DNA of 64,000 nt from a virus: positions 32,001 to 96,000 of the IMG/VR virus record IMGVR_UViG_3300032770_000003; one strand, written 5' to 3'. Shown here piece after piece: positions 19,181-25,015 of the stretch (the first letter of the stretch is position 1; every line of letters begins with the position of its first letter). The notes under the pieces were generated by a model. The model ran no database searches and was not told the origin of the DNA. It worked only from the letters and a program-made list of their open reading frames with translations. Made by a program: the position numbers and the translations under genes.

Positions 19181-20614
19181 TCAGACCCGCGTGACGGCTT
19201 TGGGTCGCCGTACCACTGGCCTGGGCTTAGGTTGAGCCGGAGTTAGTGGCGATGGTGGAGGTGCACCGGCGCTACCACTAGCTGTAGTGTTGGGCGGTGG
19301 CTCTCTTAGCAGATCTTGCAGAATCATCTTGTCGTAGGAGCTGCAAATATCGACTGTGAACTTGTCAGGGCCATTGCGATTCTTGACCCCAAAGAGACGC
19401 AAAACTCCTTTCTCGATCTCGTCCTTCGTCGCACAGAGCGCGATGATGACGTCCCCAATGAACGCTTTCTGGATCGAGTCAGCGATGTGCTCGACGTCGA
19501 TGACATCAGCCACGAGCCCCACCCGGTTCGACTGCGTCGCACTCCAGATCGGCAATTGCATCTCGCCTGCGAGCCCGCGTAGGTCCTTGAAGATCGCTCC
19601 CAGGTCGGCGTACACGTCCTGATAGTTGGTCAGCGGCTTGAGCAGGTCACCGTAGTCGACGATGATCAGGTCGGGACGCCAGCCGGTCGCATCCAGCTGC
19701 CGCAGATGCTGCTTGATCGTCATGATCGACGCAGTACCGGTGGGGTAGTGCTTAATCCGAAGCTGGTGCCCCCAGCGCTCCTGCATGAAGGCGGCCTTGC
19801 GCCTCACCTGTGCGGTGTGGTTGCCCAGCTCGTTGATCGGGACCCCGGTGAGAGCTGCATCGTAGCGTTCAGCGATGTCCCCTTCGTCCAGCTCCAACGT
19901 ATAGTGCGCTACGTTATAACCGTGGGTGACGGCAATCTTCCCGCAGTGAGAGAGCGCGATCGACTTGCCACGGCCCGTGCCGCCAAGCCAGAGACCGAGC
20001 TGGCCGTCTTTGAGCCCTCCCCCGATCTTGAGGTCCAGCTCGGTGATTCCTACCGGGATGGCACGCTTGTTCGTTCCCCCATTCTCGCGTCCCCTGATCC
20101 GCTCCTGCAGCGTCTGGAAGTAGTTCGTTCCTATGTCAAGGTGATTCATCCCGATCGCGGGGATCTGCGAAATTCGATTGACGATGTCGTCCCAGACCTC
20201 GTCATCGGCCGTCTCCATCAGCGGCGCAGTCTCCAGCCACACCTTCCGCCCCGCCTGGCGACGGCAAAAGCGGATGACCTCTTCGATCGTGTAGGGTGTG
20301 TTGGAGACCGGTTGCTGGAGCTTCTTGAGGACAAACTCGTAGTCCGCGAGATCGGTGTCTCGGACTGTCTTGGAGCGTACCGCCTTCCGCAGCTCGTTCG
20401 AGAGCACCGGATCGATCGTCGGGTGCGACTGGAATTGCTCGTAGAAGTTCTTGATCGTGCTGAAGAACCAAATCAAGATCTTGTCTTCGAAGTACTCCGG
20501 CTGGAACAGCTCGACGCCGGTCAGAAGAAAATCATGCCTGGCCAGCATGAGCGCCAGGATTCCGATCTGAAAGTCACGGTCGAAAGGAAACGAGACAACC
20601 GGCGCCGTGCTCAT
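19181..20614 (-). CDS. dnaB: DnaB/gp41-like replicative helicase
   Basis: GGTGRGKS, TLEL, IIVDYGDL, WSATQSNR, KNRNG. Confidence 0.92.
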   Translation of the reverse strand: MSTAPVVSFPFDRDFQIGILALMLARHDFLLTGVELFQPEYFEDKILIWFFSTIKNFYEQFQSHPTIDPVLSNELRKAVRSKTVRDTDLADYEFVLKKLQQPVSNTPYTIEEVIRFCRRQAGRKVWLETAPLMETADDEVWDDIVNRISQIPAIGMNHLDIGTNYFQTLQERIRGRENGGTNKRAIPVGITELDLKIGGGLKDGQLGLWLGGTGRGKSIALSHCGKIAVTHGYNVAHYTLELDEGDIAERYDAALTGVPINELGNHTAQVRRKAAFMQERWGHQLRIKHYPTGTASIMTIKQHLRQLDATGWRPDLIIVDYGDLLKPLTNYQDVYADLGAIFKDLRGLAGEMQLPIWSATQSNRVGLVADVIDVEHIADSIQKAFIGDVIIALCATKDEIEKGVLRLFGVKNRNGPDKFTVDICSSYDKMILQDLLREPPPNTTASGSAGAPPPSPLTPAQPKPRPVVRRPKAVTRV

Positions 20615-20844
20615 CTCGCCTTGGCAGCAACCAGCTTGTGGCCCTCTTCGACCGCTCGCCGGAGACCAGGGCTAAGCATTTTCAGGAACTCGATCGTCTC
20701 GATCGCTGCCATCAGCGAGTAGCGTTGCTCAGCCGTCAAATCCATCGTCTGGTGCATGTGGCGCAGGTGCCCCTGCACCTCGGACACCGACGGGCGAAAC
20801 TTTCCCATTGATGCTGTCACTCCGAGAGGAAGAGCAGCCAACAC
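20611..20844 (-). CDS. hypothetical protein
   Basis: 77-aa ORF coupled to helicase start (ATGA overlap). Confidence 0.55.
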   Translation of the reverse strand: MLAALPLGVTASMGKFRPSVSEVQGHLRHMHQTMDLTAEQRYSLMAAIETIEFLKMLSPGLRRAVEEGHKLVAAKAR

Positions 20845-20879
20845 TGCTCTCCCAAAATCATGAGGTCAAGAAGTGACGA

Positions 20880-21386
20880 TCAGCCGCAACCCTGATCTGT
20901 TGCGGTGACTTCATTCCATGTAAGGTAATTTACAATCTTGGAGATCGCCGTTTGCCCTACTCCAAACTCTGCAGCAAGCACAGACTGTAGAGCACCTTCC
21001 GTGAATCGACGACGGATCTCCTCAACAGCCTTTCTAGTCAGCTTGCTTTGTGGGTGTGCGTCCCCTCGATTGTAGTGACTGGCGTGGCGGTGCTTTCGCC
21101 ACATGTCGTACATGTTCAGACTGTAGTCTCCAAGAAAGAGATGCTCAGGACGAACACACGGAGGAGTATCGCAAGTATGTAACACCAACATCCCATCCGG
21201 AATCGCCCCAAAAAAGTACTCCCAAGAAACACGATGCGCTTGAAGATGCCGGGTCCTCCCAGCTTGCGTTATCGTGTAGTGGCCATAGCCTTTGCGAAGC
21301 TTCGCAGCAGACCACAACCAGCAGCCATCCGTAAACTTAACCTTGTCCCAAAACCGGGCAGATCCCACAGGTAATGAGCGCAACAT
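20880..21386 (-). CDS. free-standing HNH homing endonuclease with C-terminal HTH
   Basis: RFWDKV...CWLW...GYG...AHRVSW...VLHTCD.P.CV.PEHL.LG...N; SKLT...V.EIR...LA.EFGV; ATG overlaps RNR stop (TGATG). Confidence 0.9.
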   Translation of the reverse strand: MLRSLPVGSARFWDKVKFTDGCWLWSAAKLRKGYGHYTITQAGRTRHLQAHRVSWEYFFGAIPDGMLVLHTCDTPPCVRPEHLFLGDYSLNMYDMWRKHRHASHYNRGDAHPQSKLTRKAVEEIRRRFTEGALQSVLAAEFGVGQTAISKIVNYLTWNEVTATDQGCG

Positions 21387-24300
21387 CAACCACACCCTTG
21401 TGACCAACCACAGGTTCGGCAGGTAAGACAAGCACCGGCTCTCTGCGCAGGATTCCCACATTGACCACACACAAATCCGCTGGTCGGCTTGACCACCGCT
21501 TGCTCCTGTGTGTTGGCGATGATCTTCACCGCCGCTGCCAGCTCATCCACCTGCTCTTGGTTCAGCTGTGCTTCGCTGAACTCCGAACCCAGCCAGCGGA
21601 AGAGGTAGTCAAGCGGTGATTTGGCGAATCGTACGGCAGCGTACTCAGTCATGCCTGCTGGCTCGAAAGACGTGTACGAGAACTTGTCCACCAGCACCTC
21701 AAGCGGTACCCCGTACTGCAGGCACAGCGATGTCAGCACCCCGACGGCGTCCATCAGGCCCGAGACTGTCGAGCCCTCCTTGGACATCTTGATGAAGATC
21801 TCGCCTGGCTTGCCGTCGCTATAGAGCCCAACGTGGATGTACCCTTCGTGACCGCCGATACTGAACTTGTGCCGGTGAGACATCACATCGGCCGGCAGCT
21901 TCTTCCGCGTCTGCAGCGGTACCGGAGAGGTCTCGGAAGGCGCTGAAGCTGTCTTGCTCTGCAACGGCTGCGTGCGCTTGGAACCGTCACGGTACAGCGC
22001 CACCGCTTTGAGACCCTTGCGCCACGCCAGCTGGTACAGATCGCTGATCTGCTGCTCCGTCGCATCGTTCGGGATGTTGCACGTCTTCGAGATCGCACCC
22101 GACACGAACGGTTGCACGGCGCTCATCATGAGAATGTGCGCCTGAGGTCGCAAGAAGCGACCTCCGACTGGATCAGGAAAGCTGCTATCGAACACCGGCT
22201 GGTGCCGCACGTCCAGCCCCGGCGCACCTACGGTCGATCCGTGTTCGAGCACGTACTGCGAGATGCCCCCGACCGTTGTCTCATCGTACCCCAGACACCC
22301 AAGCGCACGGATGACCTGCTGGTTCGTCATCGTGAGAGTGCCACCCCCCACCAGTTTCTTGACTTTGATCAGCGACAGCTCCGGCTCGATGCCCGTGGTA
22401 TCGCAATCCATGAGAAAGGAAATCGTTCCCGCTGGCGCAAGAACACTGATCTGACCGTTCCGGTAGCCGTGCCTCGATCCCAGCGCCAAACAGCGAGCCC
22501 ACGCATCTGTGGCTGCATCCGCCAGGGACGCGATCGTGTCGTTGGGCCCGGTGATCGTGTCCTCGGCAAATGAGACCTTTGCTACAGCGTTCTGATGCAT
22601 GCGCATGACGCGCAGCATGTCAGATTCGTTGTAGGCATCGAAGGCGCCCTTGACTTCTGCGATCTCGGCGGAGCGTGCGTACCCACGTCCCGAGAGGATG
22701 GCGGTCACGTACGCGGCTTGGGCGCGAGCTTCGTTCGAGTCGTAGGCCAAGCCCTGGGCCATCAAGAAGGCGCCCAGGTTGCTGTAGCCGATGCCTAGCG
22801 TGCGGTGCCTGCTGCTGTTCGCCTGCATGAGCGGCGTGGGGTAACTGGCGCCGTCGACCAAGATCTCCTGCGCCGTGATCATCACGTCGATCACGTGCTC
22901 GAAGCTCTTGACGTCGACACTCCCATTGTCACGCAGGAACTTGAGCAGATTGATCGACGCCAGATTGCACGCCGTATCGTTCAGGTACATGTACTCGCTG
23001 TTCGAAACAATAGGAGCGTGTTCAAAACCAGGACAAGCAATCCCAAAATTATGAGTGGCCACAACCTCGATGTCATAGACAGACACCGGCATATCCAGTG
23101 ACAAAAACTCAACAGATGCGACCTTATCGTTTACATCAGCACGATGCGCTTCGATGAAGTCGGAGAACTCTGTCCAGCTCATCCCATGAATACGCCCCCC
23201 ATCACGTGAATGCGCGATTGGAATCGAACCAAGCAATCCATGATCCCTAACATGACTGTTCCAGCGCCACACAGTAACTGGTCCAGTGGACTCCAACGCC
23301 TCCCACGCCTCTACCAACACACAAGGTTCTACGCTAATGAAGCGTGGATTTCGGGCACCAGTTGAATGCTCTGATTGGTGGCTTCCGATGGTTGTTAATT
23401 CATAGTTCGAGAGACGATCATCTGTTGCGTCATTGTTTCGATGATGAACCTGCATCCCTTTTGGAATAGACCCATTCACTTGTTCCCACAGCCAACGGTT
23501 GAACCACTCAGTTCCGTTTGCTGAAGTCTCAGTTACGCGATGATTGATTGTCCTGCGATTGTTTCGCTGAACATTACGAGTAAAACTCAGCTTCATGAGC
23601 CGCATACCTGGCTTCAATCGCTGCGCTTCAACAGATGAACCATTGCGCAAATACCAATGATGCTCAGGTGTACACGTAAACTGTAAACCCCGCTCAGTCG
23701 TAACCTTAACTAGTGATGTAGTTTCACCAGCTTTCCAAGCTTTTTTGATTTGTTTCGCCACGGGTAGGCGTGTCTCGAAATCATAGGAGAGCGCCAAAGG
23801 CAACTTCTCCATGTCTGCAAGTTGACCAATCGGTATACGCCCTTCACTAGTCTCCACCAACGTCTCCCCTACAAAACAGCAAGGATTCGACGCCTCGATC
23901 CTGCCGTCAGTGGGGCAGGTGTGCCAGCGGTTGATGGTTGTGTCGAACTGCAGTCCTGGGTCACCGCAAACGTGAGCGGCTTTGCAGATCTCTTCCCAAA
24001 GCATGCGTGCTTTGACGGTTTCGAGCACCGCCGTCTTCCCATCACGAGCCATGAGGTTCCAGTCGGCGTCGCTTTCCACCCGTCGCATGAACTCGTCAGT
24101 AACGCGCACACTGTGATTCGCGTTTTGGAACGGCACTAGCTGATAAGCACCCCACCGCGCTCGGAAGTCGCCCTCGAAGCCAGCGTCGATGAGCGCATGA
24201 GCCGCTTTCTCACTCTGCGCCTTGCTGCGGATGAACTCCAGAATATCGCCGTGGTCGATATTCAGAATCGCCATCTTGGCCGCTCTTCGTGTCGTGCCAC

Positions 24301-25015
24301 CGCTCTTGATCGCGCCCGCGTTGAAATCGTCCTTGGCAATGAAGGGCACTGGACCCGATGCCATCCCACCACCAGAGAGACCTTCACGCGAGCTACGCAG
24401 CTTGGAGTAGTTGACCCCGGAGCCACTGCCACCTTTGTAGAGACGTCCTTCGATCTCCGCCAATTCCAAGATCGAGGTCATTGTGTCTTCGAGCCCAACT
24501 ATGAAGCACGCTGAACATTGCTCAGCACGAAGTGCACCACCCGATGTGCCTACGTTGAACCAGACCGGTGAGTTGAAGGCGGCTATCTGGTGCAGAAGGA
24601 TGTAGCTCAGCTCGTCTCGAAAAACTTCATGAGCCGCTTTCGCACCATTCGACTTGACGTCGGGGAAGTATCCCAGCTCCACCCCCCAGCGTGCGATCGT
24701 CCCAGCGACACGACTGATCATTTGCCGGACGCTGGTCTCACGAACCTTCGTGTCGAGAGACGGCACGTACCGGAAGTACTTCTCCGCGGTGACCATGGCG
24801 CAGTTCTGAGACCAGGTCGCGGGGAACTCCAGATTGTGGCCACGGAAGACCACCTCACCATTCGGCTTCGTGATCTCCACCGTTCGGTGTTCCCACTTCA
24901 CTGTGCTGTAGACATCAGCCTCCGGCGAAACGAACTGCGACAACACAGTCAGCATCAGCTGCTTTTGATCGACCGGAACACCAGCACTCGAAGTACCAAA
25001 GCCACGCAGCTCCAT
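21386..25015 (-). CDS. nrdJ: class II (adenosylcobalamin-dependent) ribonucleotide reductase with C-terminal TSCPD/Zn domain, intein-containing
   Basis: FNSPVWFN, QCSACFI, SGG.TRRAAKM, SNPC|SEY, ACNLASINL, APAGTISF, SGAISKT, YRDGSKRTQPL; start at MELRG. Confidence 0.95.
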   Translation of the reverse strand: MELRGFGTSSAGVPVDQKQLMLTVLSQFVSPEADVYSTVKWEHRTVEITKPNGEVVFRGHNLEFPATWSQNCAMVTAEKYFRYVPSLDTKVRETSVRQMISRVAGTIARWGVELGYFPDVKSNGAKAAHEVFRDELSYILLHQIAAFNSPVWFNVGTSGGALRAEQCSACFIVGLEDTMTSILELAEIEGRLYKGGSGSGVNYSKLRSSREGLSGGGMASGPVPFIAKDDFNAGAIKSGGTTRRAAKMAILNIDHGDILEFIRSKAQSEKAAHALIDAGFEGDFRARWGAYQLVPFQNANHSVRVTDEFMRRVESDADWNLMARDGKTAVLETVKARMLWEEICKAAHVCGDPGLQFDTTINRWHTCPTDGRIEASNPCCFVGETLVETSEGRIPIGQLADMEKLPLALSYDFETRLPVAKQIKKAWKAGETTSLVKVTTERGLQFTCTPEHHWYLRNGSSVEAQRLKPGMRLMKLSFTRNVQRNNRRTINHRVTETSANGTEWFNRWLWEQVNGSIPKGMQVHHRNNDATDDRLSNYELTTIGSHQSEHSTGARNPRFISVEPCVLVEAWEALESTGPVTVWRWNSHVRDHGLLGSIPIAHSRDGGRIHGMSWTEFSDFIEAHRADVNDKVASVEFLSLDMPVSVYDIEVVATHNFGIACPGFEHAPIVSNSEYMYLNDTACNLASINLLKFLRDNGSVDVKSFEHVIDVMITAQEILVDGASYPTPLMQANSSRHRTLGIGYSNLGAFLMAQGLAYDSNEARAQAAYVTAILSGRGYARSAEIAEVKGAFDAYNESDMLRVMRMHQNAVAKVSFAEDTITGPNDTIASLADAATDAWARCLALGSRHGYRNGQISVLAPAGTISFLMDCDTTGIEPELSLIKVKKLVGGGTLTMTNQQVIRALGCLGYDETTVGGISQYVLEHGSTVGAPGLDVRHQPVFDSSFPDPVGGRFLRPQAHILMMSAVQPFVSGAISKTCNIPNDATEQQISDLYQLAWRKGLKAVALYRDGSKRTQPLQSKTASAPSETSPVPLQTRKKLPADVMSHRHKFSIGGHEGYIHVGLYSDGKPGEIFIKMSKEGSTVSGLMDAVGVLTSLCLQYGVPLEVLVDKFSYTSFEPAGMTEYAAVRFAKSPLDYLFRWLGSEFSEAQLNQEQVDELAAAVKIIANTQEQAVVKPTSGFVCGQCGNPAQRAGACLTCRTCGWSQGCG
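23000..23878 (-). mobile_element. intein in RNR active-site loop (293 aa) carrying an HNH endonuclease
   Basis: NPC|CFVGETLV...CTPEH...VHHRNN...DDRLSN...VYDIEV..THNF...IVSN|SEY; AT-richer than flanks. Confidence 0.92.

Follow-up and report, generated by a model that had tools for sequence, protein, structure and literature searches.

A putative homing endonuclease insertion at the 3' end of a phage nrdJ gene, with a possible relic of the native gene end

In a 64,000-nt stretch of phage DNA (positions 32,001 to 96,000 of IMG/VR record IMGVR_UViG_3300032770_000003; hereafter the window), the class II (B12-dependent) ribonucleotide reductase gene nrdJ and the free-standing HNH homing endonuclease gene directly downstream of it both end with codons for QGCG followed by a stop. 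We consider it probable that a homing endonuclease entered the 3' end of nrdJ, that a donor tail replaced the native one, and that the last four native codons and the stop survive as the disordered C-terminus of the endonuclease, a reading that concerns one locus and a relic of 15 nt.

All genes of the locus lie on the minus strand. nrdJ (21386..25015; P0003, called as 1209 aa, a length that includes a 293-aa HNH_3 intein at 23000-23878) gave Pfam matches to Ribonuc_red_lgC (1.4e-119), Ribonuc_red_2_N, TSCPD, Intein_splicing and HNH_3. Its terminus reads ACC TGT GGT TGG TCA CAA GGG TGT GGT TGA (TCGWSQGCG-stop). The 168-aa HNH ORF (20880..21386; GC3 0.52) starts with an ATG at 21386-21384, which has one base in common with the nrdJ stop (TGATG), and its terminus reads ACC GCA ACA GAT CAG GGT TGC GGC TGA (TATDQGCG-stop). 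Within this ORF, a family-homologous core (residues 10-160; 20907..21359) carries an HNH_3 nuclease in its N-terminal part, followed C-terminally by a helix-turn-helix up to a W-x-x-V motif. Four junction codons for TATD (20895..20906) lie, by alignment, between the HNH family region and the relic, with which they fold into a hairpin as its 5' arm (fold z = -1.98). The last four codons and stop of the ORF, CAG GGT TGC GGC TGA (20880..20894, with the stop at 20882-20880), are the putative displaced native nrdJ end. Reading of the sequence confirmed the preliminary description in that QGCG-stop occurs twice, at 21400-21386 (CAA GGG TGT GGT TGA, the present nrdJ end) and at 20894-20880.

The bases directly 3' of the relic stop on the minus strand are TCGTCACTT..., the beginning of a 71-nt spacer (20809..20879), assigned as native by comparison with kin, which holds a conserved hairpin (20828-20853). 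This spacer leads to a conserved small ORF of 65 aa (20611..20808), with orthologues in the related loci L006, L007, L009 and L012 and no match in Pfam or PHROG, and then to dnaB (19181-20614). An assembly join is ruled out because a separately made assembly of the source run (Logan) shows the same arrangement at uniform depth. The source run contains the endonuclease-bearing form only; a second wetland run gave a few 151-nt traces, none of them over 20540-21477.

The HNH protein appears to be an intact endonuclease. It matches HNH_3 (PF13392) at 42 bits, against a Pfam gathering cutoff of 24.8 (E 7.4e-11), and PHROG HNH endonuclease families down to 1.6e-26, while residues 113-161 match helix-turn-helix PHROGs and form three C-terminal helices in the AF2 model. 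All 16 columns that are invariant in 50 aligned homologues are kept (C22, W23, W25, G35, R52, G60, H70, C72, D73, C77, P80, H82, G86, N91, D94 and R100). The best PDB match of the model is I-HmuI of Bacillus phage SPO1 (1u3e; Foldseek E 5e-4 over 158 aligned columns), at 12% identity and a TM-score of 0.40; a search of solved structures by the HNH sequence gave nothing significant. I-HmuI likewise combines an N-terminal HNH nuclease with a C-terminal helix-turn-helix, but is intron-borne and nicks one strand, whereas the HNH protein here is free-standing and known from its sequence and a model. No promoter- or terminator-like site was found between nrdJ and the HNH gene, and the latter is probably a promoter-less cassette expressed from the nrdJ transcript.

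The end of this protein is unusual for its family. Alignments with tblastn, PHROG and MAFFT end at residues 157-165, with PHROG and Pfam matches reaching residue 161 at most, and the mean pLDDT of the model, 90.9 overall, is 53 for residues 161-168. Most of 119 HNH homologues stop 0-3 residues past a W-x-H-V motif, about 8 residues before the end of this ORF, although approximately one-third have a tail of at least 4 residues past the conserved motif. The ORF runs past the end of the family and of the predicted fold by about 8 residues, into the terminal motif of NrdJ. In NrdJ this motif is general, xGC[GS]-stop being the end of 120 of 120 NrdJ homologues ([SEQTG]GCG in the nearest phage clade) and of none of the 119 HNH homologues. 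According to the preliminary description, unrelated HNH homologues with the same end would refute it; not one of the 119 ends in GCG, or indeed in GC[GSA].

The two QGCG-stop copies are identical at 11 of 15 nt and differ at all four third positions, as would be expected of diverged homologues and not of a fresh duplication. Several comparisons set the match beyond chance. In the 171-kb genome only 2 of 189 ORFs end in GCG, namely nrdJ and the HNH gene. Furthermore, among 734 adjacent same-strand ORF pairs (from this genome and 110 fetched loci) nrdJ/HNH is the only one with at least three terminal residues in common. The site had, however, been chosen for its match, which brings in a selection effect. 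A search of 84 other nrdJ loci for a second relic, that is, a GC[GS]-stop ORF after nrdJ, returned three spurious short ORFs only; in these related loci, three non-nrdJ ORFs of at least 30 aa end in GC[GSA] and none in QGCG. The other HNH_3 copies in the genome (L003, L004 and L005) have ends that do not repeat those of their neighbours. Searches of the HNH region for a longer old nrdJ tail, using blastn-short and all three frames, gave nothing past the 15 nt. The relic is small, 12 coding nt and a stop, and is a single case; its codons had been described as host-like, and three of the four do end in G or C, a count of no statistical weight alone.

Comparison with relatives suggests that this motif may be the original end of nrdJ. 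In L006, L007/L008, L009 and L012 the gene order is nrdJ, small ORF, dnaB, (Zn-ribbon), polA, without the HNH gene, although these syntenic relatives are at most 66% identical in amino-acid sequence. Relative to them the HNH gene is an insertion, present or absent at a fixed site, in agreement with the preliminary description. The 71 nt after the HNH stop fall within the 35-94 nt that separate the nrdJ stop from the small ORF in the endonuclease-free relatives, and the spacer shows local similarity beyond that of shuffled sequences to those of L006 (p 0.01) and L009 (p 0.0065). Over a 21-nt junction, the relic and spacer match the nrdJ-stop junction of L009 at 18 of 21 positions and the present nrdJ end matches it at 14 of 21, the stretch being short and the relative distant. 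From these alignments, the spacer after the HNH stop is most readily taken as the native nrdJ-to-small-ORF spacer, contiguous with the relic, and the C-terminal QGCG of the HNH protein as an NrdJ-type end in its native context. The earlier proposal that the old gene end was kept as the HNH C-terminus is supported by three features: the extension of about 8 residues past the family end, its universal NrdJ terminus and the native spacer that follows it.

An AT-rich nrdJ end in relatives lacking the HNH gene had been named as evidence against the proposal. The GC-rich, endonuclease-free L006 and L009 instead have nrdJ tails richer in GC3 and encode the last cysteine by TGC, as the relic does, so that neither outcome named as refuting the proposal was obtained. 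A near-isogenic endonuclease-free allele was sought in several collections and did not turn up in any. A 2.3-kb blastn query had no counterpart among 50,697 phage records, the top hit of peptide-seeded IMG/VR scans reached 58%, and among 5.8 billion proteins the closest NrdJ relatives were 66% identical over the full length and 60% identical as partial C-terminal fragments. An exact 18-mer of the conserved spacer hairpin had no viral match and 32 metagenome matches, which are attributed to chance because none showed extended similarity. P0242 was considered as an odd NrdJ fragment and rejected; it is an unrelated tandem TSCPD duplication.

The last 30 codons of nrdJ (21389..21478), which encode a Cys-rich zinc-finger tail, form the putative donor-derived replacement. 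GC3 falls from 0.78 over the preceding 300 codons to 0.33 in these 30, with a sharp change point at the start of the Cys-rich tail, bearing out the observation that roughly 30 codons are AT-richer. No other of 85 genes in the genome has a terminal window with so low a GC3. In a set of 80 viral nrdJ genes the difference between tail and body (-0.44) is 3.7 SD off the mean, and only L088 shows an equal drop. The tail is compositionally foreign, and composition is what the evidence for a donor-derived tract consists of. A part of the dip is generic, as NrdJ tails in general show a milder one (mean -0.05; -0.14 in L006 and -0.23 in L009, both endonuclease-free), so that the earlier claim of a foreign tail stands on composition with this deduction. 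A lower-GC donor is plausible because lower-GC members such as L007 (nrdJ GC3 0.38) exist in the same phage group.

The protein sequence of the tail has nevertheless remained of the usual type. Its six cysteines, at the extreme C-terminus and spaced 3/10/3/3/6 (C-x2-C-x9-C-x2-C-x2-C-x5-C), are conserved in 120 homologues and have the spacing of C920/923/933/936/939/945 of the S. nassauensis NrdJd (PMC5704485). In that enzyme, variants missing any one of the six were inactive with the reductant TCEP, indicating that all six are needed for active-site reduction (PMC5704485). Since all are required, a break four codons from the end of nrdJ would need a replacement. The present end also contains AAGGG, 8 nt before the HNH ATG, a possible ribosome-binding site; selection for this function could explain some of the silent differences without any role in resistance to cleavage.

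L088 provides what appears from its sequence to be independent evidence that the end of nrdJ is a homing site with co-converted tails. There, a GIY-YIG/NUMOD homing endonuclease gene (GC3 0.47) begins inside the last nrdJ codons, without a relic.

These observations can be assembled into a model in which a promoter-less, free-standing gene for an I-HmuI-like HNH endonuclease, from a lower-GC donor phage, would have been introduced at the 3' end of nrdJ, an essential gene, through repair of a double-strand break. The resulting hybrid locus would consist of the native nrdJ body; a donor Cys-rich tail of about 30 codons with the six essential cysteines kept and a new QGCG-stop; the endonuclease ORF, presumably coupled translationally to nrdJ via TGATG; and the last four native nrdJ codons with the native stop, still attached to the native spacer. 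Having no stop of its own, the endonuclease ORF would read in frame into the relic and so acquire a disordered C-terminus ending in QGCG. Alleles without the endonuclease would be cleaved by the enzyme within or close to the conserved sequence that encodes the tail, and repair would copy the endonuclease gene and the flanking donor tail together (co-conversion). The silent differences in the tail, together with the splitting of the site by the insert, would leave the carrier genome uncut, and the place of the initial break or join may be given by the relic's left edge. The preliminary description had the insertion take place a few codons before the stop, a picture that is incomplete: because the foreign tract is about 30 codons long and the survivors are four, some 26 native codons would have been replaced by gene conversion or recombination and not displaced. 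The unequal length of tract and relic means that this additional gene-conversion step must be assumed.

The main competitor, which we regard as unlikely, is classical intronless homing, in which an ordinary intergenic endonuclease arrived with a co-converted nrdJ tail and the QGCG-stop is a coincidence of GC-rich spacer. In its favour, L088 has the same kind of foreign tail and abutting endonuclease but no relic. Moreover, the relic is only four codons long, tails of 4 or more residues past the conserved motif occur in about a third of the HNH homologues, and the site was selected by a reader for the match. Against coincidence, a terminal match of four residues is unique among the adjacent ORF pairs, GCG ends are confined to these two genes of the genome, and the related loci yielded so few GC[GSA] ends outside nrdJ and no QGCG. 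In addition, an insertion after the stop predicts spacer immediately behind the HNH gene, where there is instead a full NrdJ-type end, in a junction that agrees with that of L009 at 18 of 21 positions. We judge a 15-bp duplication of the nrdJ end during insertion, by fill-in of a staggered break or by slipped or microhomology joining, to be improbable. The two copies do flank the insert just as a target-site duplication would, and, if they later diverged, selection for the HNH ribosome-binding site could have shaped the upstream one, in which CAA GGG creates the AAGGG. However, a difference at all four silent sites amounts to saturating divergence, yet the HNH ORF is intact, compositionally foreign and absent in all kin; the further 26 low-GC3 codons upstream are also left unexplained. 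HNH homing is not known to leave duplications of this kind (PMC2988022).

Two further explanations appear very improbable. The HNH gene could be the remnant of an element once in frame close to the C-terminus of NrdJ, either a decayed intein or a C-terminal fusion, with QGCG as its C-extein; HNH_3 inteins abound in this nrdJ and in those of its kin, and the relic is in frame with the HNH gene. However, Pfam found no Hint/intein splicing domain in the 168-aa protein, which starts at an ATG of its own behind an entire nrdJ stop and has the fold of a complete I-HmuI-like two-domain nuclease, and the +1 residue (Q after D) is not Cys, Ser or Thr. Equally improbable is a QGCG tail that is functional and selected in the HNH protein, for example by imitating the redox tail of NrdJ or as a zinc ligand, and not left over. 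Its retention in frame would agree with this, as would the redox activity of the GCG cysteine in NrdJ, but the tail is absent from every HNH homologue examined and predicted to be disordered, and a lone cysteine without a partner has no known role.

Replacement of a native gene end by an endonuclease insertion, the reading preferred here, resembles a process described for mobile endonuclease ORFs of fungal mitochondria that carry a replacement gene end, in atp6 of Allomyces macrogynus (Paquin et al., 1994) and in atp6, atp9, cox2 and nad3 of Glomus (Beaudet et al., 2013; PMC3630166). In the fungal genes, as here, the endonuclease ORF lies within an essential gene, in its 3' part, and the native body is joined to a foreign C-terminus with conserved protein and diverged silent sites. 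The native C-terminus, which in the fungi is found downstream of the endonuclease, would here be represented by the 15 nt of QGCG-stop. The differences are that the host is a phage and not an organelle, and that the enzyme is HNH and not LAGLIDADG or GIY-YIG. Furthermore, only four putative native codons survive where the fungal system keeps the displaced end in full, the endonuclease forms its own cistron behind a genuine nrdJ stop where the fungal one is fused to the host gene, and, unlike in the fungal system, the native copy is assigned from distant relatives (at most 66% amino-acid identity).

Phage systems offer partial parallels. In intronless homing by the T4 seg and mob genes (SegF, SegG, MobE), flanking markers are co-converted (PMC2988022). 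These genes are, as here, promoter-less cassettes beside a conserved essential gene (co-transcribed in T4), and flanking host sequence becomes donor sequence; the nrdJ tail here and in L088 fits such a co-conversion tract. They sit between genes, however, and the ends of their neighbours are single-copy, whereas here a piece of the coding end of nrdJ would be present twice, the second time as part of the endonuclease ORF. Aeromonas phage Aeh1 mobE, inserted in nrdA (Friedrich, 2007; Crona et al., 2011; PMC3045599), and T4 mobA in the topoisomerase gene (gene 39/60) likewise put an HNH gene, with neither intron nor intein, into the coding region of phage genes for nucleotide metabolism or replication, and sequence made by the insertion joins the host protein with function kept. 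There, the gene is divided and its product consists of two polypeptides that must reassemble, whereas NrdJ here stays in one piece and would be supplied by the insert with a complete replacement end. The interpretation in the preliminary description is partly supported; the locus would be a phage variant of intronless homing that resembles gene-end replacement in fungal mitochondria.

No phage description of gene-end replacement by an endonuclease was found in the open-access literature. We put forward tentatively, as a possibility somewhat short of even, that an HNH cassette with a full, silently diverged 30-codon NrdJ module has landed, with no need of an intron or intein, among the final codons of a phage ORF that is essential, the relic being where the break or join occurred. 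If so, the strategy of the fungal mitochondria would have its first counterpart in a phage, and the nrdJ tail would be a homing hot spot shared by two or more families of endonuclease (HNH here, GIY-YIG in L088).

In the usual view, essential coding sequence is open to homing endonucleases only via introns or inteins, or by splitting the gene. A third route, one documented in fungal mitochondria, would be a cassette equipped with a gene end of its own. The locus offers a concrete candidate homing site, the conserved tail-coding end of nrdJ, and carries a warning for annotation, in that the C-terminal residues annotated for such ORFs could be host sequence that was captured. If the proposal is true, a functional 30-residue redox module would be swappable between phages by an endonuclease.

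The source of the record is a wetland metagenome. It is a 171,494 bp IMG/VR virus, of which the window covers bases 32001–96000, with a CheckV completeness estimate of 96%, a genome-wide GC of 0.59 and a median GC3 per gene of 0.68. On the minus strand nrdJ (21386–25015) is followed directly by the HNH gene (20880–21386), a conserved 65-aa small ORF (20611–20808), dnaB (19181–20614), a Zn-ribbon ORF and an intein-bearing polA. No promoter- or terminator-like site was found between nrdJ and the HNH gene, whose ATG lies within TGATG, shares one base with the nrdJ stop and is preceded at 8 nt by AAGGG.

Both genes end in QGCG, as the preliminary description had stated, NrdJ in TCGWSQGCG-stop (codons CAA GGG TGT GGT TGA) and the HNH protein in TATDQGCG-stop (CAG GGT TGC GGC TGA, 20880–20894, minus strand), with all four third positions differing between the two 15-nt copies. 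The same arrangement is present, at a uniform depth of 27.9, in a Logan assembly made independently from the source run, and it is therefore not an assembly join. All 120 best NrdJ homologues end in xGC[GS]-stop, the nearest phage clade having [SEQTG]GCG. The suggestion that the HNH gene had taken its ending from nrdJ agrees with the ends of HNH homologues: a GC[GSA] terminus occurs in none of the 119 nearest, most of which stop 0–3 residues past a conserved W-x-H-V motif. Only two of 189 ORFs in the genome, nrdJ and the HNH gene, have a GCG terminus. Of 734 pairs of neighbouring ORFs on one strand, drawn from the genome and 110 fetched loci, this pair alone has at least three terminal residues in common. 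The match is beyond chance; however, a selection effect persists, because the window was picked for this very match, and weight was given to supporting lines independent of it.

The HNH protein scored 42 bits against Pfam HNH_3 (cutoff 24.8), matched phage HNH and HTH PHROGs and kept all 16 residues invariant among 50 homologues. Its predicted fold (pLDDT 90.9) has a nuclease at the N-terminus and a module of three helices at the C-terminus, with the homing endonuclease I-HmuI as the best solved structural match. Since profile and alignment matches all finish by residues 157–165, and mean pLDDT is 53 for residues 161–168, the last eight residues lie outside both family and fold. An origin of the gene as an intein remnant was ruled out by its separate cistron and the lack of splicing domains.

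The closest relatives have a NrdJ identity of only 53–66%. The syntenic loci L006, L007/L008, L009 and L012 have in common the order nrdJ, small ORF, dnaB, (Zn-ribbon), polA, and in all of them nrdJ and the small ORF are direct neighbours; judged from this gene order, the HNH gene is an insertion relative to these relatives. The spacer from the nrdJ stop to the small ORF is 35–94 nt in the relatives, and that from the HNH stop is 71 nt in the window, where it shows homology to its counterparts in L006 (p 0.01) and L009 (p 0.0065). Over the HNH QGCG-stop and the first spacer bases, 18 of 21 nt match the nrdJ-stop junction of L009, against only 14 of 21 for the present nrdJ end and the bases that follow it. 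The QGCG-stop of the HNH gene thus stands at the expected ancestral nrdJ stop site, joined to what reads as native downstream sequence. Searches of phage records and IMG/VR, of 5.8 billion proteins, both full-length and partial, of metagenomes by pattern scan, and of the source reads gave no close endonuclease-free allele.

In this phage group the small ORF, which contains TAEQRYSLMAAIETIEFLKMLSPGL, invariably lies between nrdJ and dnaB (L006, L007, L009 and L012); it has no family in Pfam or PHROG. Just upstream of it, a hairpin at 20828–20853 (minus strand; GGGAGAGCAG-TGTT-GGCTGCTCTTCC), partly conserved in L006 and L009, may have a role in regulation or processing.

The AT-richer final codons of nrdJ described earlier were confirmed: at the point where the cysteine-rich module begins, exactly 30 codons from the stop, GC3 drops sharply from ∼0.8 to 0.33. 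None of 85 genes of the genome has a lower value over its last 30 codons (next lowest 0.43), and among 30-codon windows taken anywhere in GC3-rich genes about 1% are equally low. Milder dips occur in endonuclease-free relatives (L006, −0.14; L009, −0.23), and part of the dip is generic. For 80 distinct viral nrdJ genes, GC3 of the tail minus that of the body has a mean of −0.05 ± 0.11; only one viral locus, L088, equals the −0.44 of the window, and the present tail looks imported. Its Cys spacing is exactly that of the cysteine-rich domain of S. nassauensis NrdJd, the last Cys aligning with C945. In that enzyme, loss of any one of six cysteines leaves no activity with TCEP as reductant, and C933/C945 are the proposed redox pair (PMC5704485). 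A rare AGA Arg codon in the conserved ...NPAQRAG... of the tail is common to the window, L006 and L009 at the DNA level, even though the genome strongly favours CGN (5% of Arg codons are AGA). This is a possible hint of constraint on the nucleotide sequence or of an earlier exchange of the module.

Further upstream, nrdJ carries a 293-aa intein (23000–23878, minus strand; C413 to N705, +1 Ser) at the NPC|SEYMY active-site region, with its own HNH_3 nuclease and a GC3 of 0.37–0.57; extein windows range over 0.63–0.93. GC3 is back at 0.77–0.87 in the extein windows directly next to the intein, which leaves no sign of a long co-conversion tract. Relatives have up to two inteins in nrdJ (P0013, a homologue of 1568 aa).

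We consider it fairly probable that the QGCG-stop of the HNH gene is the displaced native nrdJ end, a 15-nt relic at one locus. A break within the tail-coding end of nrdJ, or close to it, would have been repaired from an endonuclease-bearing, lower-GC relative, a plausible donor since lower-GC members of the phage group exist (L007 nrdJ, GC3 0.38). On the left, repair would have resolved at the 5′ edge of the cysteine-rich module, replacing the native ∼26 codons; on the right, the copied strand would have joined the recipient four codons ahead of its stop, so that the HNH ORF, without a stop of its own, would read in frame into the native QGCG-stop. The join may date from this lineage, as an irregular one-ended event, or from an earlier stage in the donor lineage, in which case the whole unit would home by ordinary recombination. 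Silent differences in the new end, together with the split site, would keep the carrier protected. The main alternative, in which an ordinary endonuclease lies between genes, the nrdJ tail is co-converted and QGCG arises by chance, is unlikely, as a NrdJ-type end before the spacer is not expected from purely intergenic insertion after the stop. A 15-bp target duplication could have made both ends, yet is less likely: the silent sites differ at 4/4 positions although the insert is still intact and compositionally foreign and is missing from relatives, and the other 26 low-GC3 codons would be left unexplained.

An imperfect hairpin (20866–20925, minus strand; core CCGCAAC/GTTGCGG, 8-nt loop, −18.6 kcal/mol, z −1.98, with 7 of 200 shuffles folding equally well) extends from the HNH end across the putative relic and the stop into the first bases of the spacer. 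Its core pairs, and the TATD codons are therefore partly the reverse complement of the relic; the hairpin might stabilise an RNA 3′ end, be a remnant of the join, or have arisen by chance.

The endonuclease load of the genome is heavy. Three other HNH_3 copies, lying at the window's edge or beyond it (whole record G000:C1, 18975–19478, 108329–108856 and 14332–14448), have 43%, 31% and 51% identity, respectively, to the HNH protein next to nrdJ, and no repeat of a neighbour's end was found at their ends. A near-identical phage is present at very low depth in a second wetland study (X2), in which a few 151-nt contigs match 21825–22943 with 0–3 differences; the HNH region lies beyond this sparse cover.

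Gene-end replacement by mobile endonuclease ORFs is described for Allomyces atp6 and Glomus atp6, atp9, cox2 and nad3, where the native C-terminus remains downstream, sometimes in phase (PMC3630166); on the displaced-end reading the present locus would resemble these in having a replacement end with the native one downstream, here in a phage. When free-standing phage endonucleases of the seg and mob kinds home, the flanking sequence is co-converted (PMC2988022). Coding-region insertion of the HNH gene mobE splits Aeh1 nrdA, the insertion-made tails being essential (PMC3045599), and T4 mobA in the topoisomerase gene is another gene-splitting HNH insertion. The open-access text searched held no phage report of an endonuclease supplying a replacement gene end and retaining the displaced one.

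A second, independent endonuclease stands at the same gene end in the unrelated phage locus L088, where a 255-aa GIY-YIG/NUMOD3/I-HmuI-NUMOD homing endonuclease (L088:4964–5731, plus strand; GC3 0.47) has its ATG inside the last nrdJ codons (nrdJ stop at L088:4973). There the last 30 nrdJ codons have a GC3 of 0.37 against 0.81 upstream, and no relic of the old end was found at this locus. Two unrelated endonuclease families thus abut nrdJ, each with a 30-codon low-GC3 tail, which argues for homing at the conserved nrdJ end and for an origin of the low-GC3 tails as co-conversion tracts.
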